DNA of 56,485 nucleotides from Scenedesmus sp. PABB004 (GCA_014905635.1 JABVCE010000036.1:248001-304485); one strand, 5' to 3'. Shown: positions 9,088-46,775, counted from the first letter of the stretch. A program made the numbers and translations. The notes: generated by a model not told the origin, from the sequence alone.

Positions 9088-9335
9088 GACGGGCGGCGGG
9101 GCAACGGGAGCGGCTGCTGCCGCGCGCGCGGGCCGGCGAGCGGGCCCCGGTCAGTCGCGCGCATCACGTGAGCTGCACGCCGCCGTGGCTGCGAGCTGCC
9201 GCAGCAGCCGCCGCAGCCGCGTGCGAGCGCGTCTGCCGGCGGCGCTGGTGTCAGCGCCACGATTGCGTCCGCGCACCCGCTGGGGGGTGGCGGCGCCAGC
9301 ACCGGTGAGCGCGCCCTGCAGCGGCGGTGCGCCAG

Positions 9336-14108: not shown

Positions 14109-14154
<46 letters not shown>

Positions 14155-14338
14155 GGCGGCGGCGCGCGCGCGGCCAGCGGCGGCGGCCAACGCCGCGCCG
14201 GGCGCGCAGGTGGTGCGCGCGCCGCTGACGGTCGAGAGCGGCGGGCTGACGCGGACGATGAAGCCGCGCCGCGCCGTGATCGTGACGCAGCTGCACGCCG
14301 CCGACGCGGCCGCGCTGCTTGCGCGCCTGCGCGGCTGA
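10881..14338 (+). CDS. Long-chain acyl-CoA/acyl-ACP synthetase, AAE15/AAE16-like, with probable plastid transit peptide; multi-exon
   Basis: AMP-binding motif TLVYTSGTTGAPKAV, plus LLPPWHIYQR, VSGGGSLSPHLDTFFELIGLTVLNGWGLTETSPV, GWLNTGDLG, GRAKDTIVLLSGKNIEPQPLE and LTRTMKPRR. Start is 10881 or the in-frame ATG at 10929. Confidence 0.85.
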
Positions 14339-14693
14339 GCGGGGACGGCGCAGGCGAGGGAGCGGACCAGCGGGGAGGGGGCGGCGAGGGCTGCCGCGTG
14401 TGTGTGCGACGTCGCCGCGCCTGCGGCGGCTGGGCGCGTGCGCAGCCGTCATCACTCTTCATGTTGCAGTGCTGCGGTGGTTGACCGCATCAGATCGGTT
14501 GCGTGCGCAGCCCGCCGGGGGCCCTCCACCCCGCCGCGGCGTCGACGCGTGTCTGTGAGCGAAGGGGCGTGTAGAGAGAGTGTGTGCGTCGCTCGGGCCT
14601 CGGGTCTGTGCGGCGCTCGCGCGCTGGCCAGCCGCGTCGGTCAGGGCTCGGGAGCGGGGCGCAGCGGCTGTGACGGCGGGGCGCCGCCACGGC

Positions 14694-16229: not shown

Positions 16230-16295
16230 AAGGGCAATTGGGGGGGGGGGGGGGGGGGCAGCAGTGCGAGCCGCATGGGAGCCCGGTAGACACCG

Positions 16296-16493
16296 CCACG
16301 GGCTGCGCCGCCGAGGTCGGCCGCCGGCGGCCGCGCCGCGCCGCGGGCCGCGCGCCGCCCGCGCGCGCGCCGCTCGCCGGCGCCGCGGCGCGGCGATGCC
16401 GTGCGCCGTTTCCTTTGCCCCGCCGCCCCTGCGGAGCGGAGGTGCGCGGCTCCAACAGGCTGCCCGGCCACGGGCTGCGCCACCGAGGTCGGC
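16296..16493. repeat. ~172-bp satellite, first segment
   Basis: CCACGGGCTGCGCC recurs at 16296 and 16468 (172 bp apart). Same monomer as 54751-56485. Confidence 0.9.
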
Positions 16494-17043
16494 TGTCAGC
16501 ACCGATGGGGGCTGCTGCCCGATGGAGGCTAGGCCTGGGGCCGGCCGGACTGAGCACTGGTGGGCTTGCATGCGCGCGCAGCAGCGGGGTCACCGGGGCA
16601 TGTACTGCAGCGCGGGTGACCGCGCACGGCAGCGACCGTGCTCTCTGCTGTGTGTGGCGGGGCCTAGTCTGAGGCCTTTTGTGCAGCGGCAGGCGCCATT
16701 GCAAGGCGTGCTGGCCGAGTGGGGGTTACACACCGATTCGCAACCAGTGCGACCTTGCTGACGGGGCAGGGTTCGCCCTTGGCTGCGCGCCCGCTGAGTG
16801 AACTTAGGCGCGCCCCGCGAGGGACGAGCGCCCCCCCAGAACCCAGTCGAGCACCAGCCAACGGTAACCACCGCGCCCGACAGTCCCAGCCGCACGCCGC
16901 GAGCGGGCAGAGGTCGACGCGAGCACTGGGCACGCCACAGGGGGAGCCAGCAAGCAAAGGAAGCGATCGCGACCGCGGCGCGCCAGAGCAGAGTGCTGGG
17001 TCGGGCAGCCGACCGCGAGCATCCCGGGTGGGGCAATCCCTGT
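16494..17043 (+). repeat. Terminal repeat A1 (550 bp)
   Basis: Identical by eye to 28237-28786. Confidence 0.92.
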
Positions 17044-17053
17044 TCTGGGGGGG
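17042..17053 (+). other. Putative self-priming primer-binding site (Tf1-type)
   Basis: GTTCTGGGGGGG is the exact reverse complement of CCCCCCCAGAAC at 16831-16842 inside A1. No tRNA-type PBS seen. Confidence 0.7.
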
Positions 17054-17214
17054 GCCGCTGCTCAGGTAAGCGCCGCGCCGCGCGGCGCATTGCGCTCGGG
17101 GGAGAGCAAGGAGGGCGCAGGAGCGCCCAGCCAGGCCGGGCGACAAGCCGTCGAGCCGCACGTGGCGGCCGACGTGGATCGCCCGACCAACACGTGAGGA
17201 GACGCCCAAAGGGC

Positions 17215-17470
17215 GCGGGAGCTAGCTCGAGCCCACAGGGCCGAGCGGAGCGGAGCCAGCTCGAGCCCAGAGGGCCGAGCGGAGCAGGAGCCAGCTCGAG
17301 CCCACAGGGCCGAGCGGAGCGGAGCCAGCTCGAGCCCACAGGGCCGAGCGGAGCAGGAGCCAGCTCGAGCCCACAGGGCCGAGCGGAGCGGAGCCAGCTC
17401 GAGCCCACAGGGCCGAGCGGAGCAGGAGCCAGCTCGCGCCCAGAGGGCCGAGCGGAGCAGGAGCACAGCG
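17215..17470. repeat. Tandem repeat of alternating 34/35-bp units (69-bp dimer) in the Gypsy leader
   Basis: GAGCCAGCTCGAGCCCACAGGGCCGAGCGGAGC(A)G repeated about 7 times. Confidence 0.85.
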
Positions 17471-17734
17471 CCCAGAGGGCGCGCGAACCGGCCAGGCGCC
17501 GTGCCCAAAGGGAACAAGGGAGCCGCGCACCGCGCCCAGCCCACGGAGCCAAGGCCACAGGCCCCGCCTGGGAGAAGCCCAAGGGGCCGCAAAGCCGGAA
17601 CAAGCGGCCCAGAGGGCCAGGAGCCTGCCCACCGTGGCCACCGCTGAGCCCCGCAAGGAGGCCCAGCGCAATCACCCACGGACCCCGCCGCAGAGAGCGG
17701 CAGCGACTGCGGCAGCGACAGCGACGAGGACGAC

Positions 17735-20700
17735 ATGCTGCGCAACTTCAGCAGCTACGGCCAGCTCGGGCGCGGCAGCCCGCCGCGCGGGCCGCGCTTC
17801 AGCGCCCGCAAGCTGGCGGGCAGCCACAACGGTGAGCAGCTCTGGGCGGGGCAGCCGGGCAAGCCGGCGCAGCAGTGGATCAACGAGGCGCGGGCGGCGA
17901 TCGGCGCCGCGCACAGCAAGAGCACGCAGAGCGGGCGCGCCGTGATGTCGCTCGCGGAGTTCGTGGACCAGCTGCTGGTGAAGGTCGAGCCGGAGAGCGA
18001 GCCCGCCCAGGTGCTCCTCAAGATCCGCGCGGCGCTCGCCGACCACGGCCTGGCGGCAGAGAACGGGCGCTACCTCTGGGCGCGCCCCTCTGCCGAGGAG
18101 GTGCGGCTGGCGCTCGGCCCGAGACAGGACCAGGAGCGGCACAACAAGATGCTGCACGAGGCCTACACAGACCGCGTCGGGGACGTCCTCGACAAGGCGC
18201 TGGAGCGGGGCCTCGTGGTCAGCCAGATGGAGATGGACCAGGTGCGAATGGGCGACGTCCCGCCCATCAGGCCGACGGGCGTCCAGGAGCTCAAGGCCAG
18301 CGCGACCGTCATCTACACCACCACGGGCGACCAGCCCGGCAAGCGCTGGACGCCAGTGCTGTACGTGGTGGAGCGGCTGCTGCTGATCATGGAGCTGCGC
18401 TTCTGCATCGCCACGCAGGAGCAGGTGAGCGAGTTCTTCACCATGCAGCAGGGCGACGCCACGCTGCAGGAGTACGCGCAGCGGATCCGGCAGGCCGTCC
18501 GGACGCTGCGCTGCGAGCTGCACATCATGCCCGACAGCGCGGCGCAGGTGTTCATCGCAGGGCTGAGCAGCGGCGCCTGCAGGGCCATGGTGCAGCAGCA
18601 GGTGATCGCGCAGGGCCTGGGCAGCCTGACGCTGGACAACGTGCTGGAGTGCGCGGAGAAGCACCAGGCAGTCACGCAGTCCACGCTGCGCGCCAGCCTC
18701 TTCCGCAAGGCGGGGCACGATTTCCTCGGCTCCATGGACGCCAAGGTGCAGGGCAGCAAGGAGCGCGGCGGCGGCTCGCGCGAGGTGCAGGGCCCAAGGC
18801 AGGTGGGAGATCGGCGCGGCGCAGGGCAGCGCCCGGGCAACTGGGCCGCCAGCGCGCCGCACCACGCCCTGGCGGGCGCTGCCTTCGCGAGCCAGGACGT
18901 GCGCGCTGACATGCCCTACAGCGCGCCCGCAGGCGCCTACGCCGACGGCTACGACACGCGGCAGTCGTACTACGGCTACAGCCAGCCGCGCGGCCACCAC
19001 CACTGGCAGCAGGCGCGGCCGATGCAGCCGGCGGGCGCGGCGCAGCAGCGCGCGCTGCCGCCGCCAGAGCTGCGCCCGCACACGAGCGGTGGCACCAACC
19101 GCGCGCCCGCGCCCTGCCCCTACTGCCGCTTTGGGCCAGGCCACGCAGTCTGCTGGTACGACCAGCCCAACAAGGCGCCTGCCAACTGGGCGCCTGGCAG
19201 GAACGCTGAGCCCGGCGCGGTGCAGCACTACCTCAGGCGCTGCAAGGAGCTGAAGATCCAGCCGGCCTGGTCTGGTGAGAGCGGCGCGCGGGGCTCCACG
19301 CCCGCGCAGCACCAGCGCCAGCAGCAGGCGCGCGGGCCAGTCGCCGCGGCGGCCCTCTGGCCCGAGTATGAGACCCCGCTGCTGCACCAGCCGCAGGGCA
19401 GCGAGCGCTGGGAGAACAGCAGCCTGAGCAACTGGCAGCACATGCCGGCGGGCTCGCTCTGCGAGATCGGTGAGCACTCGCTGAGCGCAGGCGCGGCCAC
19501 GCGCGGCGCGCGCAGGAGCGTGATGCCCTGCAGCTTCCTGCCGGCGGACAACGCGCAGCCGCGCACGGCGCCGCCGCTGAGCAGCGGCATGGAGCCGGCC
19601 CTGAGCAGGCCGTCTGCCGAACCGGTGCCGCCGCAGTTCAAGGTCAAGATCGTGTTTGAGAGCGAGAAGCCGCTGGCAGCCAGCCAGCTGGGCAAGATCC
19701 AGGAGATGATGCAGGGCCAGGAGATGGAGAACAGCCAGCCGCGCGCAGCAGCGACCAACGCGCCCGTGGCGCTGGCGCAGCTGGCTGAGGATGGCAGAAG
19801 CGCGCAGGCGCTGGAGGAGCTGCACGCCGTCGCAGGCAGCAGCACGAGCTTTGAGCAGCAGATGGCAGCGTTCAAGCGCAGCACAGGGCAGCGCCAGACG
19901 ATGATCAAGTTTGATGGCCCGCAGCTTCCCATGGTGCGCACCAGCGGCGGGCGCGTGATGCAGATGCAGAACACCGCCACCGACTCTGGCTGCGTCCCCT
20001 CTATCATCAACCAGCGCCTGGCGCAGGAGATGGGCCTGCACGTGTACCGGCTGCTGCCGGAGCAGCTGCCACCAGTCAGCACGATCGAGGGCCAGCCCAC
20101 GACCAGCATCATCGGCCGCACTGAGCCGGTGGCGGTCATCCTGGGCCACGGCACCGAGGACGAGGTCAGCCTGGAGCTGCCAGACGGCTTCCTGGTCGTG
20201 GACAGCCCAAGCGCGTACGGCATGTACGGCGCTGTGCTGGGGCGGGACATCATCGACAAAGTGAGCGGCTTCGTGCTGCCGTTCAACAGCCAGTTCTACT
20301 ACATCAGCGGGCGCCCGGCCACCAACGGGGCGAAGCTCGCCTGCATGCAGGTGCGGCTCACCGCGCGCAGCGAGCCGGCGGAACGCACGCCCGCCGCATG
20401 CACGGAGCCGATGCCGGCCTGCACGCTGCGCGCAGAGGAGAACGAGGGCGAGGAGCAGGGCCACGCCAAAAGCGAGCCCAGCTGCAGCTGGCTGCAGCGC
20501 GCGCTCAAGGCGCTGAACACCGCGCGGGACGCGCTGCTGGTGCTGCTGGTGCTGCCGGTCCTGATGCTCCTCAGCCAGGCGCCCCTCATCAGCGCGGGCG
20601 CGGTGCTCGCGCTGGGCGTGGTGGGCCAGGGCGCGGAGGAGGCCTACGCCAGCGCCACCAAGCTCCTGAGCCACACCTGGCACCGGCCCCGCCCTGCGCC

Positions 20701-21295
20701 CAGACTGCCGCTGATCTACACGGCAGTGCGCAGCATCCTCCACAAGGTGGGCTGGCTCTGCGCAGCCGCGCTCTGGGTGCCGCGCGTTCTCGCGTGCTGC
20801 CTGAGCAGCGGGCTGCGAGCCCGGCTGAGCGGCACCTGGCGCCACGTGCGCGCAGGGCTGAAGCAGCACGTGCCCTGGGCGCGCGCACCAGACCTCTACG
20901 TGCGCATCGGGCGCTGGCGCTACCGTTCTATGGAGACGGGCGATGTGCGCTGCCTCAGGCCGCCCATCGCGCCTGACGGCACAGAGTGCAATGCGCCGAG
21001 AAAGTTCAAGATGTGGCGTCGCACCTTCACGCGCGGCTTTGTGCGTAAGGCGCTGCCCCTGCAGTGCGCGCTGCTGCTGCTGCTGATCGCCGGCGCTGCG
21101 GCCACGGGGCACGCCGCTGGCCAGCTCAGCACGCACCTGGCGCCGCCAGGCAGCAGCGCACTGCGCATGCCGTGGGCCGACACACGCGCGCCACTGCCGC
21201 CCTCGCACGCAGAGGCGCAGGCGCAGGCATGGGGAGCAGCACAGCAGCTGCAAACCAACAGCTTTCGCGTCGGCGGCAGGCAGCCGCAGGCGTGA
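17735..21295 (+). CDS. gag: Gypsy ORF1: Gag (capsid plus Cys/His motif), aspartic protease and hydrophobic C-terminal extension
   Basis: Gag-like FTMQQGDATLQEYAQRIRQ...QVFIAGL, CPYCRFGPGHAVC, protease ATDSGC (~19980) and later AVLGRD. Confidence 0.8.
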   Translation: MLRNFSSYGQLGRGSPPRGPRFSARKLAGSHNGEQLWAGQPGKPAQQWINEARAAIGAAHSKSTQSGRAVMSLAEFVDQLLVKVEPESEPAQVLLKIRAALADHGLAAENGRYLWARPSAEEVRLALGPRQDQERHNKMLHEAYTDRVGDVLDKALERGLVVSQMEMDQVRMGDVPPIRPTGVQELKASATVIYTTTGDQPGKRWTPVLYVVERLLLIMELRFCIATQEQVSEFFTMQQGDATLQEYAQRIRQAVRTLRCELHIMPDSAAQVFIAGLSSGACRAMVQQQVIAQGLGSLTLDNVLECAEKHQAVTQSTLRASLFRKAGHDFLGSMDAKVQGSKERGGGSREVQGPRQVGDRRGAGQRPGNWAASAPHHALAGAAFASQDVRADMPYSAPAGAYADGYDTRQSYYGYSQPRGHHHWQQARPMQPAGAAQQRALPPPELRPHTSGGTNRAPAPCPYCRFGPGHAVCWYDQPNKAPANWAPGRNAEPGAVQHYLRRCKELKIQPAWSGESGARGSTPAQHQRQQQARGPVAAAALWPEYETPLLHQPQGSERWENSSLSNWQHMPAGSLCEIGEHSLSAGAATRGARRSVMPCSFLPADNAQPRTAPPLSSGMEPALSRPSAEPVPPQFKVKIVFESEKPLAASQLGKIQEMMQGQEMENSQPRAAATNAPVALAQLAEDGRSAQALEELHAVAGSSTSFEQQMAAFKRSTGQRQTMIKFDGPQLPMVRTSGGRVMQMQNTATDSGCVPSIINQRLAQEMGLHVYRLLPEQLPPVSTIEGQPTTSIIGRTEPVAVILGHGTEDEVSLELPDGFLVVDSPSAYGMYGAVLGRDIIDKVSGFVLPFNSQFYYISGRPATNGAKLACMQVRLTARSEPAERTPAACTEPMPACTLRAEENEGEEQGHAKSEPSCSWLQRALKALNTARDALLVLLVLPVLMLLSQAPLISAGAVLALGVVGQGAEEAYASATKLLSHTWHRPRPAPRLPLIYTAVRSILHKVGWLCAAALWVPRVLACCLSSGLRARLSGTWRHVRAGLKQHVPWARAPDLYVRIGRWRYRSMETGDVRCLRPPIAPDGTECNAPRKFKMWRRTFTRGFVRKALPLQCALLLLLIAGAAATGHAAGQLSTHLAPPGSSALRMPWADTRAPLPPSHAEAQAQAWGAAQQLQTNSFRVGGRQPQA

Positions 21296-21476
21296 GAGCC
21301 AGAGGGGCAAGGATCGGGACCCTGCAGCAGCGGCGATTGGCCAGACGCCGCTGGAGGCGTACACTGCGGGAGGGGAGCAGGAGACAGAGGAGCTCTCTGA
21401 CCGCTGGGAACAGGACCCAGAGCACAAATGGATACATGGGAACCACCCAGAGCTCACAGCAGAGCAGAAAGAGCAG

Positions 21477-24400
21477 TTGCAGCAGGTGCTGCTCGAGCAC
21501 AAAGATGTGTTCGCGTATGAGATGAAGGACTTGGTGGGCTACAAGGGCGAGCTGGGCCCTGCGCAGCTGCGCATGAAGACAGAGGAGCCCATCATCTGCC
21601 CGGAGCGCAAGCCCAGCCCCAGGGACCTGGACATTGGAAGGGAGAAAGTGCGGGAGATGCTTGACGCGGGCGTGATCCGCGAGGTCAGCACACATGGCAT
21701 GACACATGCCTGCCCCATCGTCATGGCGGCGAAGCGAGCGCCTGATGGCACCCTCACTGACAAGAGGTTCTGCTACGATGGGCGGGCGATCAACGCCAAC
21801 GCCGTGATTGACAAGTACAAACTGCCTCTGCCAGAGGAGCTGTTCCGGCGAATGGCAGGTGCTACGTGGCGCAGCAAAGTCGACTGCAGGTCCGGGTTTT
21901 TCAACATCCCGCTGGATGAGGCGTCACAGCGCTACGCGTGCTTCTGGTGGGAAGGCAGGCTGTACAGCTTCACGCGCCTGCCCTTTGGGCACGTGAACGC
22001 CACCGCCATCTTCCAGAGAATAATGGAACACGAACTGCGCGCAGCAGGGCTCAAAGACTTTGCTGTGGTCTTTGTGGATGACATATGTATCTACACTAAG
22101 ACATTTGAGGACCACCTGAGGTGCCTGCGCCTGCTGTTTGGCCGTTTCCGGACGGTCGGGCTGCGCGCGCATCCATCCAAAACGGTGCTGTGCAGCGACT
22201 CCATGCCCTTCCTGGGCCACCTGGTCAGTGAGAGTGGCATGCAGCCTGACCAGGCGAAGGTCGCCGCAATGCGCGAGCTGGCGCCGCCAACCTCGGCTGA
22301 TCAAGTGCGCAGCTACCTGGGCGTGCTGGGCTTTTATCGCTGCTATGTGCCTGAGTACTCGGCTATTGCGGCGCCTCTCAACGCACTGCTCAAGAAAGGC
22401 ACGCGCTTCGTGTGGGGACCAGAGCAGGCGGCTGCCTTTGACAGGCTGCGCGATGCGCTCACCTCACCCACTGCGGTGCTGCGCCACCCAGACCCCTCAC
22501 GGCCATACCACCTGTATACGGACTGGAGCCCTCACGGCATCTCTGCCGTGCTCAACCAGAGAGACCAGAACGGGGGGGAGTACATGGTCGCCTGTGCCTC
22601 TCGCTCGCTCAACGAGCACGAGCGGCGGTACGAGGCCTGGAAAGGTGAGGCGCTGGCGGCAGTATGGGGCGTCAAGACGTTCCGCCCATACCTGCAGGGG
22701 CCCCACTTCCACCTGCACACCGACCACCGCCCGCTGCTCTGGCTACTCGCAGCCAAGGAGCCCACAGGGCAGCACGCGCGCTGGGTGCTGTCGCTGCAGG
22801 ACTACGAGTTCACCCTGGTCCACAAGGCCGGCAAAAGCAACGTGGCAGATGTGCCAAGCAGGCACCCACGAGCCACAACGGTGGACGCGGCAGGTGCGCG
22901 CTTGGACCGCACAAGGGAGCCCATGTATCAGCTGCAGCCGGCAGTGCTGCAGGCTGATGGCACGCCGGACACGACGGAGTACACGTGGGAGCTCCTGGAG
23001 CAGCAGCGCGCAGCGGCCAAGCCGCAGAACAGCACCGCGGCAGGGGCGCTGCTGCTGGGCACAGCCCTGGCGCCGCCCAGCCAGCCGCAGCTGCAGGCAC
23101 AGCTTCTGGAGCGCGCGACGGCTGGTGAGACCCGGCTTGACTCTCTCCTGCCCGACGCCGCCGCGTTGCTGGCAGGCAATAACGGCTCCTTCACAGACGC
23201 GGCGGACCAACTGCCGGATGACGCCTCCTACGCGGCCCAGCTGGCAGCAAGGCAACTGGCGCGCTCGGCGCGCGCATGGGTGCAAGCGGCGGTGCCACAC
23301 CTGCCGGCAGCACAGGCTCAAGCCGCCGCGCCCGCGGGAGGTGCGCACGCGGGGCCGCGTGATGCATTTGGGGTGCGCCGGGCCACAGGTCTGGCCACCG
23401 CCAGCGTGGCGGCGAGTTTCTTTCCGGCAGCGACGCAAGGCCTGGTCCTTGTGGACGCGTTTGGGGGGTTGTGTGCGGGCCTGGAGATGGCCCTGCGTGG
23501 AGGGAAACGCATCCACAAGTACCTGTATGTGGACATCAACCCCACCAGCCGGGCGATAGCAGCGCACAGAGTGCAGCAGCTAACAGCGCTGTATCCTGAC
23601 CTGCTGCCCACGTCTGCCCTGCAGGGCATGTTCTCTCTCCCGCAAGACGTGCGCGAGATCACGACATGGCACCTGGTGCAAGAAGGAGCATCGCTGCAAC
23701 GCCAACCCTGGCTCGTGGTGGGCGGATGGCCCTGCCAGGACCTCAGCACAGCTGGGTCGGGTGCGGGCCTGCGCGGGGCGCGATCAGGCCTGCTCACCGA
23801 GATTGTGCGCCTGATCGGCACGCTGCAGCAGCTGCAACCAGACCAGCCGCCCTGCTACCTGCTGGAGAACGTGCCAGTGCAATGGCACAGCGACAACCGC
23901 ATTGCGGAGGAGGACTTCAAAGTGATTTGTGACGCGCTGGGCCAGCCGACAGTGCTGGACGCAGCGCAGTTTGGGAGCCGCGCGCACCGCGTGCGAGCGT
24001 TTTGGACGAACGCATGCTCACCTGCCCAACTGGCCGCTGCTGCGGCGCAGGTGCAGAGGCCGCCGGGCCTCACGGTCTCACAAATACTGGAGCCTGGGCG
24101 GCGGGAGCAGCCGGTCAAGCACCCTGATTTCCCACCACGCTACCCCTGCAATGTGCCAGGGCAGCCCATGGCAGCCTGGCCAACGCTGATGGCGCACCCC
24201 AACAGCTACAGCTTCAGGCCAGGCAAGCCGGGCAGCGTGATCGCAGCAGACGGCACGTGGGACCAGCCCCTGACAGTCGAGCCTGAGCGCGCGCTCGGCT
24301 ATGCGGAGGGCGCAACAGCCGCGCCTGGCGTGTCGGACAGAGATCGCCGCCGTGCCCTGGGCGAGGCGATCGATGCAGCCTGCCTGGCGGGACTCTGGGC

Positions 24401-26393
24401 GATTGCCCAGGCCTGGGCGGAGCATGGCAGCACACAACCAGTGGCAGGACTTGTGCCCGAGATGGGAGCCAGCAAGGCTGCTGGGAGCAAGCCGTACGGC
24501 GTGCTATGTGCGCTGGCGGCAGCAGCGGAGCAGGACGCCCTGCAGGGCAGCAGCAGTGACATCTGGGCCGACGCAACCGCCCTGCACCTGCTGCAGAACG
24601 GAGACTTCCCAGCGGGCACAAACGCGGCTGAGCGCAGCAGAGTGGCCAAGCGCCGCGCGTACTACCGCTGGCAGGGCGGGCAGTTGCTGCGACTCATGCC
24701 CGACAACAGCACGCGTGTGGTGCCCCCTCCGGCTGAACGGCGGGAGCTGCTCAAGAGCTTCCACGACAGGTGCGGGCACTTTGGCGTGCGCCGCACTGCG
24801 GCACTCGCGCACCACACGCACTGGTGGCACGGCCTGCTGGCCGACGCGGCTTCGCTGGTGGGCGGCTGCCCTGAGTGCGGGCAGGTCCGCGCAGCTTTTA
24901 CAGCGCGCCCAGCTGAGCTGCAGCCGCTGCCCATCCGCGGCATGATGTACCGCTGGGGCGTGGACCTGTGCGGGCCTTTCCCGCGCTCAGAGCGGGGGCA
25001 CCGCTACATCCTGGTGTGTGTGGAGCACTTTAGTAAGAACATTGAGGCCATTCCTATTGCGGAGAAAACGCCAGAGTGCACTGCCTATGCTTTCCTGCAC
25101 AACGTGCTCGCGCGTTTTGGCGCGTGTGCCGAGGTCGTGCACGACCGCGGGGGCGAGTGGCAGGGTGCTTTCCAGCAGCTGCTGCTGGACTGCCTCATTG
25201 ACTCGCGCCCCACTTCAGCCAACCATCCCGCTGCCAATGGCGCGGCGGAGAAATCTGTTCATATTGTGAAGGCAGCCCTGGAGAAAACGTGCCTGCAGCG
25301 GCAGGCAGTGCGTGACTGGGACATGCACGTGCCCTGGCTGCTGCTGGGCTACCGCTGCAGCCCGCAGCGCAGCACCGGCCTCACGCCATATGAGCTGCTC
25401 TATGCACGCGCGCCAATTGTGCCGCCTGCAGTGATGGAGCGGCTGAGCCAGCCGCTGGACCTCGACGCACCTGACCTGGCCGCCGCCGACTTGGCCGCAC
25501 GCAGGCAGCTGGTCGAGCGCCTGGCACCTGAGGCCATGGCGAACCTGGAGATCGCGCAGCAGCGAGACACGCTGCGCTACGCGCGACTGCGAAGCGGGGA
25601 GATCCAGCCAAGAACGCCCACGTTCAAACAAGGTGATTTTGTGTATGTCGCGTACACTCACGCGTACAGCGCGCTGCAGCCACGCGCGCGCCCGGTGATT
25701 CTGCGCGTGCTGGAGGTCAGGCCCAGCGGCCGCCTCATGCTGCAGGGCCGCTGCGGACGCAAGATCGACCGCCACATTTCACAGTGTGCGCCCTGCCACT
25801 TGCCAGGGATCGACCCCACACTTGACCCAGCCCTGGCAGAGCAGCCGCAGGAGGCGAGCTGCGAGGCGTGCGGGCACCTGGAGTCACACACAGCGAACCA
25901 GATGCTGCTGTGCGATCACTGTGACGCGGGCTGGCACCAACACTGCCTGGAGCCGAGCCTGGATCAAGTGCCCGAGGGCGACTGGATGTGCCCGAGGTGC
26001 GTCGCTGACGGCGTGACGCAGCAGCAGCTGCAGGCCGCAGTGCGCCAGCGCCAGGCGCGGGAGCAGCGCGACGAGGGGGCGAACCTCTACCCAGACCGCG
26101 CAATGCGCGAGCGTGACGAGGCAGCCAAGCAGCTGCACGGCAGGCTGGTGCGCCAGCACTTTGTGGATCGGCAGACGGGCCAGCGCAGGCTCTTCTGGGG
26201 CCGCGCGCACTTCATGGGCGAGCAGCGTCGGCCGGCGTACTTTGATGTGTGCTGGGAGGATGGGGACGTGTACCGCTATGCCACAGCGGAGCTCACCAAG
26301 ATCCTCACCCCGCAGGACACGCTCCTGCCCGCAGGCGTGCGCTTGCCACGCGACGGCGCCTTTGGCGACACGACCGCAGGACCCAGCCACTGA
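21477..26393 (+). CDS. pol: Gypsy Pol: RT - RNase H - C5 cytosine methyltransferase - integrase - PHD - Tudor-like (frame open from 21087, probably reached by +1 frameshift)
   Basis: RT: RFCYDGRAIN, RLPFG, FVDDI. RNase H: LYTDWS, GEALA, TDHRPL. MTase: AFGG, GWPCQD, LENV, RVRAFW. Integrase: H-H-C-C, WGVDLCGPF, HDRGGEW, NGAAEK. PHD: CEAC..LLCDHCDAGWHQHCL..WMCPRC. Confidence 0.92.
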   Translation: MQQVLLEHKDVFAYEMKDLVGYKGELGPAQLRMKTEEPIICPERKPSPRDLDIGREKVREMLDAGVIREVSTHGMTHACPIVMAAKRAPDGTLTDKRFCYDGRAINANAVIDKYKLPLPEELFRRMAGATWRSKVDCRSGFFNIPLDEASQRYACFWWEGRLYSFTRLPFGHVNATAIFQRIMEHELRAAGLKDFAVVFVDDICIYTKTFEDHLRCLRLLFGRFRTVGLRAHPSKTVLCSDSMPFLGHLVSESGMQPDQAKVAAMRELAPPTSADQVRSYLGVLGFYRCYVPEYSAIAAPLNALLKKGTRFVWGPEQAAAFDRLRDALTSPTAVLRHPDPSRPYHLYTDWSPHGISAVLNQRDQNGGEYMVACASRSLNEHERRYEAWKGEALAAVWGVKTFRPYLQGPHFHLHTDHRPLLWLLAAKEPTGQHARWVLSLQDYEFTLVHKAGKSNVADVPSRHPRATTVDAAGARLDRTREPMYQLQPAVLQADGTPDTTEYTWELLEQQRAAAKPQNSTAAGALLLGTALAPPSQPQLQAQLLERATAGETRLDSLLPDAAALLAGNNGSFTDAADQLPDDASYAAQLAARQLARSARAWVQAAVPHLPAAQAQAAAPAGGAHAGPRDAFGVRRATGLATASVAASFFPAATQGLVLVDAFGGLCAGLEMALRGGKRIHKYLYVDINPTSRAIAAHRVQQLTALYPDLLPTSALQGMFSLPQDVREITTWHLVQEGASLQRQPWLVVGGWPCQDLSTAGSGAGLRGARSGLLTEIVRLIGTLQQLQPDQPPCYLLENVPVQWHSDNRIAEEDFKVICDALGQPTVLDAAQFGSRAHRVRAFWTNACSPAQLAAAAAQVQRPPGLTVSQILEPGRREQPVKHPDFPPRYPCNVPGQPMAAWPTLMAHPNSYSFRPGKPGSVIAADGTWDQPLTVEPERALGYAEGATAAPGVSDRDRRRALGEAIDAACLAGLWAIAQAWAEHGSTQPVAGLVPEMGASKAAGSKPYGVLCALAAAAEQDALQGSSSDIWADATALHLLQNGDFPAGTNAAERSRVAKRRAYYRWQGGQLLRLMPDNSTRVVPPPAERRELLKSFHDRCGHFGVRRTAALAHHTHWWHGLLADAASLVGGCPECGQVRAAFTARPAELQPLPIRGMMYRWGVDLCGPFPRSERGHRYILVCVEHFSKNIEAIPIAEKTPECTAYAFLHNVLARFGACAEVVHDRGGEWQGAFQQLLLDCLIDSRPTSANHPAANGAAEKSVHIVKAALEKTCLQRQAVRDWDMHVPWLLLGYRCSPQRSTGLTPYELLYARAPIVPPAVMERLSQPLDLDAPDLAAADLAARRQLVERLAPEAMANLEIAQQRDTLRYARLRSGEIQPRTPTFKQGDFVYVAYTHAYSALQPRARPVILRVLEVRPSGRLMLQGRCGRKIDRHISQCAPCHLPGIDPTLDPALAEQPQEASCEACGHLESHTANQMLLCDHCDAGWHQHCLEPSLDQVPEGDWMCPRCVADGVTQQQLQAAVRQRQAREQRDEGANLYPDRAMRERDEAAKQLHGRLVRQHFVDRQTGQRRLFWGRAHFMGEQRRPAYFDVCWEDGDVYRYATAELTKILTPQDTLLPAGVRLPRDGAFGDTTAGPSH

Positions 26394-26535
26394 TCAGGCT
26401 GATGCCGCACCGGGAGAGATGGAGGCCTGGCTGGGGGTTGGGGGGTGCTCACGCGTCAGTCCGCTGTGTGCCAAGCCGCCAAACCGGCGAGTGCTGACAC
26501 TGCCCTCCCGTGCCGACACTGCCGCTGCTCAGGCA

Positions 26536-27720
26536 ATGGAGGGTGAAGAGGAGCTGCTGGACTTTGGGGATGAGGAGATGGAGATGCCGGAAGCCGCCCC
26601 GGGGACGAGCAACGATGAGCAGCGGGGCCTGTCGGCACAGCTGCTGGCACGCCTCGGCAGCGGCGGCGATGATGGCTATGTGGCCAGCCCGGAGGCAGCG
26701 GAGGAGCCGAGCGACCGCAACTGCAGCCACAGCCAGAACAGCGGCGGGAGCTCCAAGCACACGGACCGCCCGCCACCTCAAGACGTGGGAGAGGAGCAGC
26801 CGGACCTGCAGACGTGGCGAGGCAACCGGAGCAGGAGCCGCAGCCGCAACCGCCACGGCCGGCGCCCTCACGACCCCGACCAGGGACCTGCAGAGCGCTC
26901 CGCGCGGGGGTGCAGCCCTGCGGCGCAGGGTGAGCGCTCGGGGCGCAACAGCCAGCTTGGCGCCCAGAGCCAGCAGCAGCCGTATGAGGCCAAAGCCTGG
27001 CAGCTGCTGGAGGACTACCGGGCCGGCCGGGTCAGCGGACCACAGGCCGCGCGGGAGCTGCTGGAGCAGCAGACAGGCGGCAGCTACAAGGAGCACGCCT
27101 GCTTCAAGGGCCGGCGCACCTGGTGCGAGCTGCACGGGCCCTGCGCGCATGACACAAAGGAGTGCAGCAACTGCCGTGAGATCACGTCGCGGCAGCATCG
27201 GCTTTTCAGCCAGCTCCTTTGCTTCCCAGCGGGCGTTCGGCGCTGGACGGAGCGCCCGCGGCGCAGCCAGGAGCCCAGTGGCCAGCGCCAGGGCAGACCC
27301 GCGGACCGCCAGGCGCCGCGGCGCTCTGAGCCGCAGCAGCGCGGCAGACGCGCGCAGGGCAGCCAGCCGATGGAATACGCGCAGCGCGAGCAGCAGCGGC
27401 GGCTGCAGCGTGACTTTGTCCAGAGCAGTGACCAGACGCAGCGCAGTGTGCAGAGGCAGCGTCAGGGCGGTGCGCCACCGCCGCAGCAGGTCAGCCAGCA
27501 GGAGCAGAGCAGCCAGGGGCAGAACCAGCTTGTTGCCCTGCCGGCGCAGCCCGCGCAGATGCTGCAGCTGGCGCCGCAGACGCAGGCGGCAGCACCGCAG
27601 ATGTATACGGAGGAGCAGGTGCAGCAGATGCTGCAGCAGCACAACAGTCACTTGAAGACGTTTGAGCAGATGGCCTTTGTCATGGCGAGCCAGATGTCTG
27701 AGCTCAAGAGGCTGCGCTGA
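26536..27720 (+). CDS. Gypsy ORF3, unknown function (acidic N-terminus, Cys/His knuckle-like motif, Gln-rich C-terminus)
   Basis: Open frame inside the element, likely ATG at 26536 (MEGEEELLDFGDEE). Motif WCELHGPCAHDTKECSNC. Confidence 0.6.
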   Translation: MEGEEELLDFGDEEMEMPEAAPGTSNDEQRGLSAQLLARLGSGGDDGYVASPEAAEEPSDRNCSHSQNSGGSSKHTDRPPPQDVGEEQPDLQTWRGNRSRSRSRNRHGRRPHDPDQGPAERSARGCSPAAQGERSGRNSQLGAQSQQQPYEAKAWQLLEDYRAGRVSGPQAARELLEQQTGGSYKEHACFKGRRTWCELHGPCAHDTKECSNCREITSRQHRLFSQLLCFPAGVRRWTERPRRSQEPSGQRQGRPADRQAPRRSEPQQRGRRAQGSQPMEYAQREQQRRLQRDFVQSSDQTQRSVQRQRQGGAPPPQQVSQQEQSSQGQNQLVALPAQPAQMLQLAPQTQAAAPQMYTEEQVQQMLQQHNSHLKTFEQMAFVMASQMSELKRLR

Positions 27721-28027
27721 GCAGCTGCAGTGGGGACAGTTTCGGTCGGGCGCTGCAGCCTGCCCAGCTCTGGCAGTTGGGGCAGTTGGCAACTGCAGCG
27801 AGGGATCAGGCGCGTGGGCGCGCGCATGTGCATGTGCGGGGAGCGGGTGAATCTGCCCCGCGCGGTGTGCGTGTGCCAATGCCTGGTGTGCCTGGTTCCA
27901 GCAGCGTGCGTGCCGCCGCTGCAGGGCCTTTGTCATGTGTGTGTTGTGCTCTTGGCAGCATTGCGAGCGCTGCTGCCAGCACCCGCGTTTTGAGCAATCC
28001 CGCCTCCTCACCTCGTGCGTGATTGCT

Positions 28028-28033
28028 GGGGGG
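28028..28033 (+). other. Short polypurine tract immediately before repeat B1
   Basis: GGGGGG, then T, then TGTGCAGC (start of B1). Confidence 0.5.
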
Positions 28034-28034
28034 T

Positions 28035-28234
28035 TGTGCAGCGGCTGGACTGGCCGCAGCGCTCAGGCCTGGTCACTGCGCGCACGCGCTACAGCCAGCG
28101 GGTGCGGCCTGAACTGGGCAGTTGGGGTCAACTGCCGCGTGTGTGCGCCTCGCAGGTGTGTGTTGCGTGAGGGCAGAGCAGCAGCAGCGGGGGCGCTCAG
28201 CGCTCATCCGACGGGTCGCTCATCTGGTGCGTCA
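28035..28234 (+). repeat. Repeat B1 (200 bp)
   Basis: Identical by eye to 28786-28985; separated from A2 by the dinucleotide GC. Confidence 0.92.
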
Positions 28235-28236
28235 GC

Positions 28237-28786
28237 TGTCAGCACCGATGGGGGCTGCTGCCCGATGGAGGCTAGGCCTGGGGCCGGCCGGACTGAGCAC
28301 TGGTGGGCTTGCATGCGCGCGCAGCAGCGGGGTCACCGGGGCATGTACTGCAGCGCGGGTGACCGCGCACGGCAGCGACCGTGCTCTCTGCTGTGTGTGG
28401 CGGGGCCTAGTCTGAGGCCTTTTGTGCAGCGGCAGGCGCCATTGCAAGGCGTGCTGGCCGAGTGGGGGTTACACACCGATTCGCAACCAGTGCGACCTTG
28501 CTGACGGGGCAGGGTTCGCCCTTGGCTGCGCGCCCGCTGAGTGAACTTAGGCGCGCCCCGCGAGGGACGAGCGCCCCCCCAGAACCCAGTCGAGCACCAG
28601 CCAACGGTAACCACCGCGCCCGACAGTCCCAGCCGCACGCCGCGAGCGGGCAGAGGTCGACGCGAGCACTGGGCACGCCACAGGGGGAGCCAGCAAGCAA
28701 AGGAAGCGATCGCGACCGCGGCGCGCCAGAGCAGAGTGCTGGGTCGGGCAGCCGACCGCGAGCATCCCGGGTGGGGCAATCCCTGT
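28237..28786 (+). repeat. Repeat A2 (550 bp)
   Basis: Identical by eye to 16494-17043. Confidence 0.92.
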
Positions 28787-28985
28787 GTGCAGCGGCTGGA
28801 CTGGCCGCAGCGCTCAGGCCTGGTCACTGCGCGCACGCGCTACAGCCAGCGGGTGCGGCCTGAACTGGGCAGTTGGGGTCAACTGCCGCGTGTGTGCGCC
28901 TCGCAGGTGTGTGTTGCGTGAGGGCAGAGCAGCAGCAGCGGGGGCGCTCAGCGCTCATCCGACGGGTCGCTCATCTGGTGCGTCA
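28786..28985 (+). repeat. Terminal repeat B2 (200 bp)
   Basis: Identical to B1; ends in CA next to the TSD. Confidence 0.92.
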
Positions 28986-29134
28986 CGGCCGCCGGCGGCC
29001 GCGCCGCGCCGCGGGCCGCGCGCCGCCCGCGCGCGCGCCGCTCGCCGGCGCCGCGGCGCGGCGATGCCGTGCGCCGTTTCCCCTGCCCCGCCGCCCCTGC
29101 GGAGCGGAGGTGCGCGGCTCCAACAGGCTGCCCG
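28986..29134. repeat. 172-bp satellite, continuing the monomer interrupted by the Gypsy element
   Basis: Resumes in register with 16493. Confidence 0.9.
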
Positions 29135-31086
29135 CACGCGCAGCATGGTGCGGCACCGCGGCGCGCTGTCGACAGCCTTTGAGCCGGGCCTTGGGTGGGA
29201 GCAGGGCGACACGCTGGCGACTACGATGTTCGACGTCTTCATCAACGCCGTGCTCCAGGAGGTGTGGACCGCCTGCCCGGGCGTGCCGCTGCCCGCCGCG
29301 CCCGCGCCCGCGCCCGCCGCGCCGCCCGCGCCGCCCGCCGGCGCGGCGCCACCCGCGCCCGAGCCAGGCGCCGCCGACGACAAGCTGGTCGCGCTCCTCT
29401 TTGCGGACGACTGCGCCAGCCTTGCGGCCGGCCCGGCGGAGATGCAGCAGCTCCTTGGCGCCACGCGCGCCGCGCTCGCCCGCTGGCGGCTCAAGGCCAG
29501 TGTCAGCTCGGCGGACGCGTCCAAAACAGCGGTGATGGTGGTGCCGGGGGGCCGCACCCGGCGTGCCGTCGCTGCGGCGGCTGCTGCCGCGGCGGCCTAC
29601 CAGTGGTCGTGGGGCGCGGAGCAGGTGCCGCGCGTCACTGGGTACAGGTACCTGGGCGCGTGGCTGACGGCCGACCGCAGCGCCCGCAGCTGGGACGCCC
29701 ACCTGCAGCGCCGCAAGGCTGCTGCGGACAAGGCGTTCTGGGCTCCGTCGGCGGTGCTGCGCGAGCGGCGCCTGCCGCTGCGCCTGCGCCTGCTCACGCT
29801 CACGGGCGTGGTGCAGCCTGTGTTGACGCACGCGGCCCAGGTCTGGGCCCGCCCCACGGTCGAGCGCCGCGCGGAGCTCGACTCGTGGCAGGCGGGGCTG
29901 GTGGCGCGCGCGACCGGGTGCCCGCCCAACGTGTCGCACGCGTGCCTGCAGCAGGAGCTGGGCATCACCCCGCTGCATGTCGTCTGCGACACCCTCATGC
30001 TGCGCTACTGGCACCGCCTGCGCGCCCTGCCAGCCGACCGCCTGCTGCGCCGTGTTGCCGACGCCTGGCCCGCCACGCCGTGGTGGAAGGGCGTGGGCGG
30101 CCTCCTGCGGGACTACGGCGTCGATGTTGTGGCTACTGCTGGCATGAGCCGCAACGAGTTTGCTGCTCACCTTTGCGACCTTGCTGGCGACCACATCGAT
30201 GGCGCATGGGAGGCCGCCGCCGGCCGCGGCTCGGTGGCGCGGCGCTACCGGGAGGCCTTTGGCAGCGGCGTCTTCTCTACTCGCTCCTTCACGCGCCGCG
30301 CCGGCGTGCCGTGCGCCCGGGACTACCTGGGCTGGCTTTGCAGCCCCGGCGGCCCGCGGCGCGGCCGGCCGGCGGAGCTGCTCATGCGCCTGCGCATGGA
30401 GTGCCTCCCGCTGCGCGCTGCCCACAGCCACGCGCGCCGGGGGGAGTCGATCGCGCAGCAGGCGGAGCGGGAGCGCTGCCCCTGCTGCGCGGCGCGCGCG
30501 CCCGAATCGGCCGCGCACTTTCTCTTTGAGTGCGGCGCGCCCGGCCGCCCTGCACGCCTCGTTGCGCTGCTTGCGGACCTCCGTGCCAGCGGCGGGGGCG
30601 CGCATGCTGGCGCGCTGGCTGCGCACCTGCGTGCGGCTGGTGTTGAGATGGCGGCTAGCGGCAGCCAGGAGCTGGAGGCTGGAGCTGGCGGCGGCGGCAG
30701 CGGCAGCGTCAGCGACCCCGGCGTCGTGGCTAGCGCGGCGGCCCCTCGGGCTGCTGACGCAGGCGCGGCGGTCAGCATCAGCGATAGCGGCGTCACGGCT
30801 GATACGGCGGCCCCTCGGGCTGATGATGTCAGCGCGGCGGTCAGCGTCAGCAACGTCTCTGCTGGTGCGGCGGCCCCTCGGGCTGCCGTTACCGGCGCGG
30901 CGAGTCGGTGTGCAGCACTGGAGCAGGCTCGGCGTTATCTGCTTGGTGACCTGCTGCAGGATCAGCTTGCTGTTCACTCTGTGGCAGATTATGTGATGGA
31001 CATCTGGAAGATGCGGGACACCGTCCTTAAGGGGCGCGGGACCAATGGGCGCGAGCCTGCGGTGTAACTATCTTTGTCTTTGTCTT
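29135..31086 (+). mobile_element. 5'-truncated non-LTR retrotransposon (RTE/RTEX-like): partial RT plus C-terminal Zn motif, ORF stop at 31067
   Basis: GWEQGDTLATTMF, LLFADD, YRYLGAWL, LQQELG, RCPCC...ESAAHFLFEC. 3' tail (TCTTTG)3. Probable TSD TGCCCG at 29129-29134 and 31087-31092. Confidence 0.82.
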
Positions 31087-31353
31087 TGCCCGACCACGGG
31101 CTGCGCCGCCGAGGTCGGCCGCCGGCGGCCGCGCCGCGCCGCGGGCCACCCGCGCGCGCGCCGCTCGCCGGCGCCGCGGCGCGGCGATGCCGTGCGCCGT
31201 TTCCCCTGCCCCGCCGCCCCTGCGGAGCGGAGGTGCGCGGCTCCAACAGGCTGCCCGGCCACGGGCTGCGCCACCGAGGTCGGCCGCCGGCGGCCGCGCC
31301 GCGCCGCGGGCCGCGCGCCGCCCGCGCGCGCGCCGCTCGCCGGCGCCGCGGCG
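31087..31353. repeat. 172-bp satellite, about 1.5 monomers
   Basis: Same monomer, in register with 29134. Confidence 0.9.
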
Positions 31354-46773: not shown

Positions 46774-46775
46774 GG

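Follow-up and report, generated by a model that had tools for sequence, protein, structure and literature searches.

In a Ty3/Gypsy retrotransposon of Scenedesmus sp. PABB004, the ends used by the integrase appear to lie inside the long terminal repeat (LTR) that is made by reverse transcription. The element has the order A-internal-B-GC-A-B, and we put the probability at roughly 0.6 that this form (A-internal-B-nn-A-B in its relatives) arises by use of an internal CA-nn-TG site together with joining of the outer cDNA ends. The window, meaning the whole stretch of DNA that was analysed, is 56,485 nucleotides long, and all positions refer to it. An earlier note on this DNA had proposed that replication ends and integration ends are separate, which is supported by the positions of the primer-binding site (PBS) and polypurine tract (PPT) and by the joint between A and B. 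New here are the covarying, putatively self-priming PBS and the G-run before B, which point to an LTR of the form B-nn-A, and the indels that are specific to the joint.

Structure and ends of the element

The element is 12,492 bp long (16494-28985) and is apparently a young, intact member of a green-lineage Ty3/Gypsy clade that combines RT-RNaseH-IN-PHD with a C5 DNA methyltransferase (DNMT). In place of the classic two complete, identical LTRs around an internal region, there is only A on the left and B-GC-A-B on the right (Table 1), with the identical repeat copies that had been described before. Repeat comparison matches 16494-17043 to 28237-28786 over 550 nt at 100% identity. Because the T at 28786 (equal to that at 17043) can be counted either as the end of A or as the start of B, A is 549 or 550 nt long. 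The junction of B1 and A2 reads CATCTGGTGCGTCA-GC-TGTCAGCACCGATG; its palindrome arms match at 8 of 14 positions when ungapped, and better with one gap.

Table 1. Features of the Scenedesmus element (window positions; ORFs are given from stop to stop)
Feature	Position	Strand	Remarks
Left TSD CGGC	16490..16493	+	uninterrupted target found 18 times in window
Repeat A1	16494..17042	+	starts TGTCAGC; 100% identical to A2; probably holds part of the promoter, the transcription start and R-U5
CCCCCCCAGAAC within A1	16831..16842	+	predicted genomic RNA 5' end and self-primer; 12-nt complement of PBS; covarying equivalents in relatives
Putative PBS TTCTGGGGGGG	17043..17053	+	directly after A1; self-priming type
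Leader tandem repeats	17187..17480	+	unit ~69 nt; from repeat comparison
ORF1	17648..21292	+	gag (weak Retrotrans_gag); Cys-rich motif ~19115; aspartic protease DSG at 19982
pol ORF	21087..26390	+	overlaps ORF1 by 205 nt, in the +1 frame
RT	21777-22220	+	Pfam, pol ORF
RNase H	22413-22805	+	Pfam, pol ORF
C5 DNA methyltransferase	from 23712	+	Pfam DNA_methylase; PCQ and ENV motifs
Integrase zinc finger	24723-24890	+	Pfam, pol ORF
Integrase DDE core	24948-25226	+	Pfam, pol ORF
PHD	25860-26000	+	Pfam, pol ORF
ORF3	26017..27717	+	567 aa; acidic, Q-rich
Putative PPT core GGGGGG(T)	28028..28034	+	G6 at 28028-28033, directly before B1
Repeat B1	28035..28234	+	200 nt; 100% identical to B2; ends GCGTCA
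Putative internal attachment palindrome	28221..28250	+	B end CA, spacer GC (28235-28236), A start TG; spacer 2 nt in 22/22 relatives
Repeat A2	28237..28785	+	100% identical to A1
A2/B2 joint	28785..28787	+	predicted U5 end ...CCCTG abutting predicted plus-strand start TGTGCAGC...; compare A1/PBS and PPT/B1
Repeat B2	28786..28985	+	200 nt; 100% identical to B1; gives right integration end ...GCGTCA
Right TSD CGGC	28986..28989	+	flank comparison and uninterrupted targets

The ends (TGTCAGC at the start, GCGTCA at the finish) have the TG...CA form and, with a short target site duplication (TSD), agree with Ty3/Gypsy elements, where TSDs are 4-6 bp. The element sits in a 172-bp satellite, the left flank terminating in ...GAGGTCGGC and the right flank opening with CGGCCGCC. 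The window contains 18 uninterrupted copies of the 27-nt target CCGAGGTCGGCCGCCGGCGGCCGCGCC, 16 of them exact and two with a single mismatch, so the insertion is delimited to the base and the clean 4-bp CGGC duplication noted earlier is a true one. When 12 complete copies were scored (the window copy and 11 relatives; L052, truncated at both ends, was excluded), seven had a perfect 4-bp TSD (window, L042, L047, L051, L058, L048, L068), three matched at 3 of 4 bases (L022, L034, L061), and no TSD was seen at L039 and L043.

The enzymes are those of an LTR retrotransposon. Pfam matches in pol follow the Ty3/Gypsy order (RVT_1, RT_RNaseH, Integrase_H2C2, rve) with the protease DSG upstream, although the rve score of 31.6 is slightly below the curated cut-off of 32.6. 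The best matches among solved structures are Ty3 Gag-Pol and PFV integrase, the integrase part matching Ty3 and PFV chains. The DDE integrase that had been recognised has an intact triad (D1293, D1353 and E1388, the last two with 35-residue spacing) and HHCC zinc finger, invariant in 27 aligned relatives, as are the PCQ and ENV residues of the methyltransferase. ORF3 gave no Pfam or PDB match. A tyrosine recombinase had not been visible before, and Pfam searches for Phage_integrase (PF00589), which a very divergent recombinase could escape, found none in the pol ORF, in 85 element ORFs (minimum length 70 aa) or in 68 ORFs from the relatives L051 and L042. The named protein relatives of the element are from chlorophytes, including one Chlamydomonas reinhardtii protein at 38% identity.

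Replication signals

PBS and PPT are both present, and they border A and B, not whole LTRs. The putative PBS appears to be a self-priming site like that of Tf1, with the RNA 5' end probably lying within A. Its complementarity to a site inside A is 12 nt in the window, a length equalled in 4/2000 control windows. The corresponding match is 15 nt in L022 and L039 (0/2000 controls), 17 nt in L051, where the sequence is unrelated (0/2000), 10 nt in L042 (8/2000), 11 nt in L034 and 13 nt in L058. Thus the bases after A and the site within A covary across three lineages with differing sequences. The window copy, L003 and 22/22 relatives with B-A-B all have the G-run adjoining B1. With a PBS after A and a PPT before B, the reverse-transcribed LTR would be B-nn-A, as the earlier note had reasoned.

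The joint between A and B

At the A2/B2 joint, the end of A (as found before the PBS) meets the start of B (as found after the PPT), i.e., two predicted cDNA ends are abutted. In one family with 19 independent B-A-B insertions, the joint is exact in nine; three have lost 2 nt at an AT microhomology, two have lost 1 nt, two have gained 1 nt, one has a substitution and two have larger deletions. Indels specific to this joint were counted in 9/19 insertions, versus 0/19 at the CA-nn-TG palindrome (the B1-nn-A2 junction) and likewise 0/19 at the boundary between PPT and B1. The variant joints are scattered across a star-like tree and therefore arose independently, which supports the view that the A2/B2 joint behaves as a de novo joining of cDNA ends.

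Distribution and polarity among relatives

The layout is supported as a family trait, not a one-off rearrangement, in agreement with what had been expected. In metagenome contigs, 41 independent relative insertions, most of them in two families and probably from few organisms, have right ends of the type B-nn-A-B (22) or a single B (19). The 22 come from unrelated assemblies and their repeat copies have diverged; L003, of a further lineage, has PPT-B-CA-GC-TG-A-B. Later deletion could account for every single-B copy, and some could reflect collapse of the B-A-B loop in short-read assembly. Among relatives with long flanks, the six closest (L001, L002, L005, L010, L081, L086) showed no resolvable repeats.

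The earlier note had predicted the forms A-int-BAB, ABA-int-B and A-int-B, and never BA-int-BA. The first and third were seen and the last was not, but neither B nor A-B was found upstream of the left A in any of 12 informative relative copies. On the right, B-A-B stands in 8/12 complete copies, and likewise in the window. The predicted cut is polar, falling always in the PBS-proximal LTR copy.

Comparison with known elements

DIRS-order elements and TOC1 encode a tyrosine recombinase and are not known to make a TSD on insertion. The PAT-like and Ngaro elements of this order, together with TOC1, share with the Scenedesmus element split direct repeats of the order A1-internal-B1-A2-B2, with the same polarity, and often a methyltransferase, although theirs is Dam-like whereas that of the Scenedesmus element is a C5 DNMT. 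The Scenedesmus element differs in its DDE integrase, TG..CA ends, 4-bp TSD and LTR-type PBS and PPT; of the DIRS features it has the split repeats, but neither a tyrosine recombinase recognisable by Pfam nor insertion free of a TSD.

The LTRs of Tf1 are of the ordinary kind, and its integrase acts on the cDNA ends and has a chromodomain. As in Tf1/sushi elements, the putative PBS of the Scenedesmus element directly follows the predicted U5 and would pair with the start of the element's own RNA if transcription begins where predicted, but its integrase has a PHD finger as C-terminal module, not a chromodomain. In Tf1 the pairing with the PBS covers 11 bases, and the RNase H cut falls between bases 11 and 12 (PMC7175516).

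A further likeness is to retroviral 2-LTR circles, in that the integrase would cut both strands of a CA-spacer-TG palindrome to give 3'-processed ends suitable for integration. HIV-1 integrase reportedly cleaves the palindromic LTR-LTR junction of such circles. The same has been described for PFV integrase (PMC1180852). For retroviruses, ligation itself creates the palindrome at the joint, and integration by this route is accessory, whereas in the Scenedesmus element it is templated inside the LTR, the joint is elsewhere (A/B) and the route is apparently obligatory. In bacterial insertion sequences of the IS3, IS911 and IS30 types, abutted inverted ends with a 2-3 bp spacer form a circle junction, and it is on this junction that their DDE enzyme, a relative of retroviral integrase, acts in copy-out, paste-in transposition. 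These are DNA transposons without reverse transcription, and the spacer comes from donor flanks.

Chlamydomonas REM1 and Gypsy-7a_cRei are also chlorophyte Ty3/Gypsy elements with a PHD finger in pol. Gypsy-7a_cRei is drawn with LTR 'subparts', its left LTR lacking the final 8 bp that the right LTR has, but it is described with two LTRs, and no DNMT is listed for it in the consulted part of PMC9940879. The closest layout in print is that of KnitGypsy-Dnmt3 from Klebsormidium nitens (de Mendoza et al. 2018), where the consulted text notes the repeats in the legend of Fig. 4c and describes a polyprotein of the Gypsy pol type that includes a C5 DNA methyltransferase (PMC5890265). The Scenedesmus element has the same combination of such a pol with A-coding-B-A-B repeats, the KnitGypsy-Dnmt3 type being assigned here by its published description. 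That host is a streptophyte, whereas the named protein relatives here are chlorophyte. The consulted text of that paper gives no TSD, PBS/PPT or junction analysis and no mechanism (PMC5890265). The literature search found no published mechanism for a split-repeat Gypsy layout; the earlier suggestion of an undescribed pathway must be qualified, since the repeat layout was already in print.

Proposed cycle and alternative explanations

The transcript ends, all DNA intermediates and the integrase cleavage in the following cycle are predicted from the DNA. Transcription would begin within A1, near 16831, and the first 11-12 bases of the RNA would fold onto the PBS after A1 and prime the minus strand, as in Tf1. 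The plus strand would be primed by the G-run before B1. With priming at these two sites, the linear cDNA would be [B-nn-A]-internal-[B-nn-A], whose predicted right outer end does not end in CA. The integrase would ignore the outer ends and act on the 5' LTR, the PBS-proximal copy, cutting its CA-nn-TG palindrome 3' of CA on both strands. The outer ends (the end of A and the start of B) would be joined, whether by end joining ahead of the cut (a 2-LTR circle), by repair following strand transfer, or by the last-finishing plus strand making an end-to-end template jump, and A-internal-B-nn-A-B would be inserted, flanked by a 4-bp TSD. A further round of replication would require a downstream A as R, which no other form retains; A-internal-B copies would be replicative dead ends, and may be explained by use of one half-site per LTR, by a 1-LTR circle or by subsequent recombination between B1 and B2.

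The earlier note had taken A2/B2 for a circle junction, and the indels in 9/19 insertions bear out a joint of cDNA ends. A symmetric 2-LTR circle, made by ligation of linear cDNA and cut by the integrase at random at either of the identical CA-nn-TG sites, would account for the A/B joint, its NHEJ-like heterogeneity, the TSD and the ends, and cleavage of circle junctions is known for a retroviral integrase (PMC1180852). Such a circle should yield ABA-int-B as often as A-int-BAB, and the strict polarity (no A-B-A on the left in 12 informative relatives, B-A-B on the right in eight complete copies and the window) argues against random cutting and leaves this explanation unlikely; the cycle proposed above, too, needs an additional assumption to account for the polarity. 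Polarity and layout do equal those of PAT, Ngaro and TOC1, which would fit a templated replication of the DIRS/PAT kind with a different enzyme. In that case a near full-length RNA from A1 to B2 would be copied, the A2/B2 joint would be inherited, the internal B1-nn-A2 would serve solely as a template for restoring the ends, and the integrase would trim and insert the product. However, the putative self-priming PBS behind A1 and the PPT ahead of B1 imply a cDNA of the ordinary LTR type, and joints that differ among close relatives of a star phylogeny, with indels confined to the joint, are not expected of an inherited, templated joint; we consider this quite improbable.

A tyrosine recombinase or other enzyme acting in trans, for example from a resident PAT-like DIRS element, might integrate the element while its own DDE integrase is vestigial. 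Split direct repeats are elsewhere tied to tyrosine recombinases. PAT-like DIRS elements do occur in chlorophyte genomes, according to the consulted part of PMC8226300. Against this, 4-bp TSDs and TG..CA ends are a DDE signature, DIRS-type elements are not known to make TSDs, the catalytic and zinc residues of the integrase are invariant across 27 relatives, and Pfam reveals no recombinase in the element or two relatives, which makes help in trans very improbable. Hardly any weight is left for an ordinary LTR element rearranged once or for an assembly artefact. Collapse or polishing could also produce 100% identity of all repeat copies, but the same layout recurs in 22 independent relative insertions, where collapse is impossible since the repeat copies have diverged, and it has been published for K. 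nitens (legend in PMC5890265). Both the TSD and the target site fit exactly, and the window also contains a Copia element whose 356-bp LTRs (48979-49334 and 54396-54751) are identical and of the ordinary kind, so that the assembly is not generally scrambling LTRs.

Implications

More tentatively, and at a little short of even chances, a green-lineage Ty3/Gypsy clade may have uncoupled its replication ends from its integration ends, with a templated CA-nn-TG attachment site and outer ends that have to be joined in each cycle. If this is true, joined or circular cDNA would be an obligatory integration precursor, kindred in spirit to the old circle-junction model of retroviral integration. A retroviral-type integrase would then work on a junction of abutted ends, much like the circle junction used by IS3-type transposases. 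The reading would further account for the origin of 'DIRS-like' split repeats, a layout otherwise tied to elements with a different integration enzyme, in the absence of a tyrosine recombinase.

Structure and target site of the element

The Gypsy-type element is arranged as A1-internal-B1-GC-A2-B2. Exact repeat extension shows that both copies of A and both copies of B are 100% identical over their whole length, with GC between B1 and A2 and a single T that is at once the last base of A2 and the first of B2. No further copy of any part of the element was found within the window. The element begins with TGTCAGC and ends with GCGTCA, and both flanks consist of a 172-bp satellite that recurs across the window. 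The empty target, 27 nt long (CCGAGGTCGGCCGCCGGCGGCCGCGCC), is found 18 times in the window (16 exact, two with one mismatch), so that the insertion is bounded to the base and the duplication of CGGC is visible directly. The complete Copia element 20 kb downstream, with its ordinary identical LTRs, served as an assembly control, and as far as the assembly can show the Gypsy element is real. The satellite is GC-rich and forms a tandem array at the right window edge. With both Gypsy and Copia inserted into it, the region looks like a satellite-based nest of transposable elements.

Features of the window (strand and remarks where available)
Feature	Position	Strand	Remarks
Host genes with introns	1-14335		eIF2D winged helix (-), Vps52 (+), AMP-binding enzyme (+); 78-81% GC
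172-bp satellite	16295-16493, 28986-29134, 31058-31486, 37660-38341, 48380-48979, 54843-56476
Gypsy-type element	16494-28985
A1	16494-17043		550 nt
Leader repeat	17187-17480		between PBS and gag; ~4 copies of a 69-nt tandem repeat
ORF1	17648-21292		weak gag match and DSG protease motif
pol ORF	21087-26390		RVT_1, RT_RNaseH, DNA_methylase (C5), Integrase_H2C2, rve, PHD
Gag-protease/pol overlap	21087-21292		205 nt, pol in +1 frame
C5 methyltransferase	23712-24005		between RNase H and integrase
ORF3	26017-27717	+	no Pfam or PDB match
B1	28035-28234		200 nt
A2	28237-28786		550 nt
B2	28786-28985		200 nt
Second Copia-type RT (RVT_2)	33103-35046	-	probably a fragment; DNA ~70-75% similar to Copia 49357-53514
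Four to five tandem units	36889-41700		~1.2-1.3 kb each, 94-100% alike, contain satellite units
LINE-type non-LTR retrotransposon	41764-47658	-	1965-aa open frame, Exo_endo_phos and RVT_1
Complete Copia element	48979-54751	-	gag, integrase, RVT_2; ordinary LTRs, 356 bp, 100% identical

Coding capacity

The pol of the window element contains the integrase triad (D1293, D1353, E1388) with its HHCC motif, as well as the methyltransferase motifs PCQ and ENV, and all of these are invariant across an alignment of 27 relatives. The integrase part matches solved chains of Ty3 Gag-Pol (E 6e-17) and of the PFV integrase (E 3e-13). With E values up to 0.5 allowed, no tyrosine-recombinase family was detected in any of the 85 ORFs (70 aa or longer, both strands), and none was detected in pol. 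A six-frame scan of two relatives, L051 and L042 (68 ORFs), found RT, RNase H, DNA methyltransferase, integrase and PHD, and no recombinase.

There is no ATG close to where the conserved part of pol begins, which together with the frame overlap implies that pol would be expressed through a frameshift or another recoding event. ORF3, downstream of pol, is acidic in its N-terminal part and has a patch rich in Cys and His, and its Q-rich tail probably contains a coiled coil; the AT-rich relatives lack this ORF, and their B1 sits ~70 nt after pol. The C5 methyltransferase is located upstream of RT in L051 (5627-6094) and L042 (9800-10360), which represent two related families, and downstream of RNase H in the window. 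Within the clade, this module has either changed place or been captured repeatedly.

Relatives and their layout

Scoring of 8000 candidates gave at least 162 pol relatives with an E value of 0.001 or lower. Of the 120 matches listed, nearly all contain RT, RNase H, integrase and PHD families, some being truncated, and about half also contain the methyltransferase family. The named relatives among the matches listed are from Haematococcus, Monoraphidium, Chromochloris and Chlamydomonas. A scan of metagenome contigs with an alignment query gave 80 loci (L001-L080), where a single-protein query had given no relative. Scanning prokaryote genome bins added six eukaryote-like contigs, in which no terminal repeats could be resolved; the remaining matches were bacterial DNA methylases.

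In 68 of the 86 loci with pol, the sequence continues for at least 900 nt downstream of it. When the loci were compared with themselves and their A and B units mapped, eight relatives (L022, L034, L039, L042, L047, L051, L058 and L061) showed the complete arrangement, A-internal-B-nn-A-B (nn being a 2-nt spacer), and many partial copies have B-nn-A-B directly 3' of pol. After merging of loci with a common right flank there were 41 independent right ends in two families, 22 with B-A-B and 19 with a single B. The loci in which neither A nor B could be mapped are from other lineages of higher GC content, and their short-read contigs have no resolvable repeats. The layout is nonetheless visible in one of these lineages, L003, which has eight Gs followed by a B starting TGTAAGATT, then GTCA-GC-TGACG, A, and the start of B again at the contig end. 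CA-GC-TG palindromes are also found 3' of pol in L010 and L011. The ungapped palindrome scan used here (10/14 matches) missed the window's own site (8/14) and served as no more than a lead to these three loci. A conventional LTR pair around pol was found at no locus; weak pol-spanning repeat pairs in L004 and L053 look low-complexity and not LTR-like. The permuted arrangement described in the earlier note is correct, and the split-repeat layout is a trait of the lineage to which the window element belongs.

The termini carry the marks of an integrase. All complete relatives start with TGTCATG (or a one-base variant) and end with ACGACA. Four-base target site duplications (TSDs) are perfect in L042 (ATGT), L047 (ATAA), L051 (AAGG), L058 (TTTA), L048 (TACA) and L068 (GTAT), agree at three of four bases in L022, L034 and L061, and are absent from L039 and L043. 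Leaving out L052, which is truncated at both ends, 7 of 12 complete copies have a perfect TSD, the window included.

Ends of reverse transcription

B1 is directly preceded by a G-run, the polypurine tract (PPT), in every one of the 22 B-A-B relatives as well as in L003 and the window. At the other side, the bases directly after A1, the primer-binding site (PBS), are complementary to a site within A, over a length that varies by copy. In the window this is 12 nt (GTTCTGGGGGGG, 17042-17053, against CCCCCCCAGAAC, 16831-16842), with 4 of 2000 controls as good. None of 2000 controls was as good in L022 and L039 (15 nt, A position ~165), L051 (17 nt of unrelated sequence, A position 164), L034 (11 nt) or L058 (13 nt), and 8 of 2000 were in L042 (10 nt). 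The decayed copies L047, L061, L043, L048 and L068 have an exact complement of 6-8 nt only, not above their own controls. Pairing between PBS and A is kept by different sequences in three lineages. This pairing would place the RNA start inside A and the start of the minus strand at the last base of A, so that the reverse-transcribed LTR would be B-nn-A, as had been proposed from the window alone.

Two other readings of these ends were considered. An LTR of the form A+B that is interrupted by the internal part is contradicted by the PPT and the self-priming PBS flanking B and A in all lineages. Against a tRNA-type PBS, the window has no tRNA gene, and in the relatives the PBS begins with bases other than TGG.

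TGTAA is the usual polyadenylation signal of chlorophytes. In L003, B starts with TGTAA, which therefore falls precisely on the boundaries PPT|B (9030-9040) and A|B (9855-9865), a placement which hints that B2 may supply the terminator of the genomic RNA.

A shared spacer and a probably newly made joint

The two boundaries within B-A-B behave differently. At the one between B1 and A2, all 22 relatives, the window and L003 have a 2-nt spacer, without any indel. The spacer bases are AC, GC, AT or GT, and AA once, and they are far more variable than their neighbours (11 of 19 B1-nn-A2 spacers in L017-L080 differ from AC). The four main variants differ from GC by transitions at CTG/CAG sites only, which leaves CA plus a purine on either strand, and the variation agrees with deamination at such sites where they were methylated in copies that had been silenced. 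A spacer made anew in each cycle from donor flanks does not agree with the copies: four of the five perfect-TSD copies compared have no match to their own TSD, and sister copies have the same spacer variants. The window is the exception, the two flank bases that precede A1 being GC as well.

The A2|B2 joint abuts the end of A, as found before the PBS, to the start of B, as found after the PPT. In the larger family, with 19 independent B-A-B copies, it is exact in nine, lacks 2 nt at an AT microhomology in three (L019, L036, L047), lacks 1 nt in two (L018, L026), has 1 nt extra in two (L057 and L071, the extra T of L071 being identical to the first PBS base) and carries a substitution in one (L039). 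Larger losses are seen in two, L021/L022 (8 nt lost, G gained) and L063 (~217 nt lost). Three joints of the second family agree within one base, and the joint is exact in the window and L003. Since the copies with variant joints sit at the tips of different branches in a star-like tree, and neighbouring boundaries in the same copies have no indel, the joint appears to be made anew at each insertion from the cDNA ends and not to be inherited through RNA. The separation of replication ends from integration ends that the earlier note suggested is supported by independent lines of sequence evidence.

Insertion forms and polarity

Single-B and B-A-B copies are interleaved in the trees of both families, so the form is not heritable, and two complete A-int-B copies have kept perfect TSDs. 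It is worth noting that short-read assemblers can drop a repeat loop, and some single-B copies may therefore be artefacts; later recombination between B1 and B2 would yield the same form. A very young-looking single-B copy, L043 (terminal branch 0.006), has at 14480-14500 the end of B, AC and then unrelated sequence, without a TSD, and may be a B-A-B copy truncated directly after the spacer.

The earlier note had B-A-internal-B-A cDNA close into a 2-LTR circle, which integrase would then cut at an internal CA^GCTG palindrome. If a symmetric circle were cut at one or the other palindrome, the two orientations should be equally frequent. The left end could be judged in 12 relatives (L022, L034, L042, L043, L047, L048, L050, L051, L052, L058, L061, L068), and none of them has B or a second A beside the left A, whereas the tandem is at the right end in eight complete copies and the window. 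Such a distribution, 8 or 9 against 0, has a probability of ~0.004 to 0.002 under the symmetric circle, and this polarity leaves a circle followed by a random cut unsupported. The cut would instead always fall in the PBS-adjacent LTR copy. If the 5' LTR is double-stranded well ahead of the 3' LTR, the intasome would first assemble on the 5' palindrome, and the free outer ends would be joined later. Alternatively, a jump from the end of A to the start of B may be possible only for the plus strand that finishes last. Both explanations fit. The cycle as a whole is deduced from sequence.

Relation to known systems and implications

The PFV integrase provides a biochemical precedent for cutting at a palindrome of abutted ends (PMC1180852). 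Such cutting has reportedly been seen with HIV-1 too. The proposed cycle resembles the circle junctions of IS3/IS911 and the early circle-junction model of retroviral integration. Textbook classification and reviews pair split repeats with tyrosine recombinases and direct LTRs with DDE integrases (for example the introduction of PMC8557442). For KnitGypsy-Dnmt3 of Klebsormidium nitens, de Mendoza et al. (2018; PMC5890265) mention in the legend of their Fig. 4c a DIRS-type repeat structure with Gypsy domains; the passages on this element give no analysis of TSD, priming or junctions and no mechanism. A figure legend on Gypsy-7a_cRei mentions LTR 'subparts' (PMC9940879). The layout itself has thus been published, in a single line, but a full-text literature search turned up no account of how split repeats come about in an element that has a DDE integrase.

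The lineage breaks the link between split repeats and tyrosine recombinases, and it shows the marks of an integrase, TG..CA ends and a 4-bp TSD. If the inferred cycle is true, it would be a natural case of a retroviral-type integrase that is obliged to cut an internal palindrome instead of processing cDNA ends, and the joining of cDNA ends, usually seen as a dead end, would be a required step. About half of the insertions would be sterile from birth as A-int-B, and annotation pipelines that rely on paired LTRs will get such elements wrong. Whether the LTR-LTR junction is competent as an integration substrate, a matter of long debate, would then be testable in algae with active related elements.
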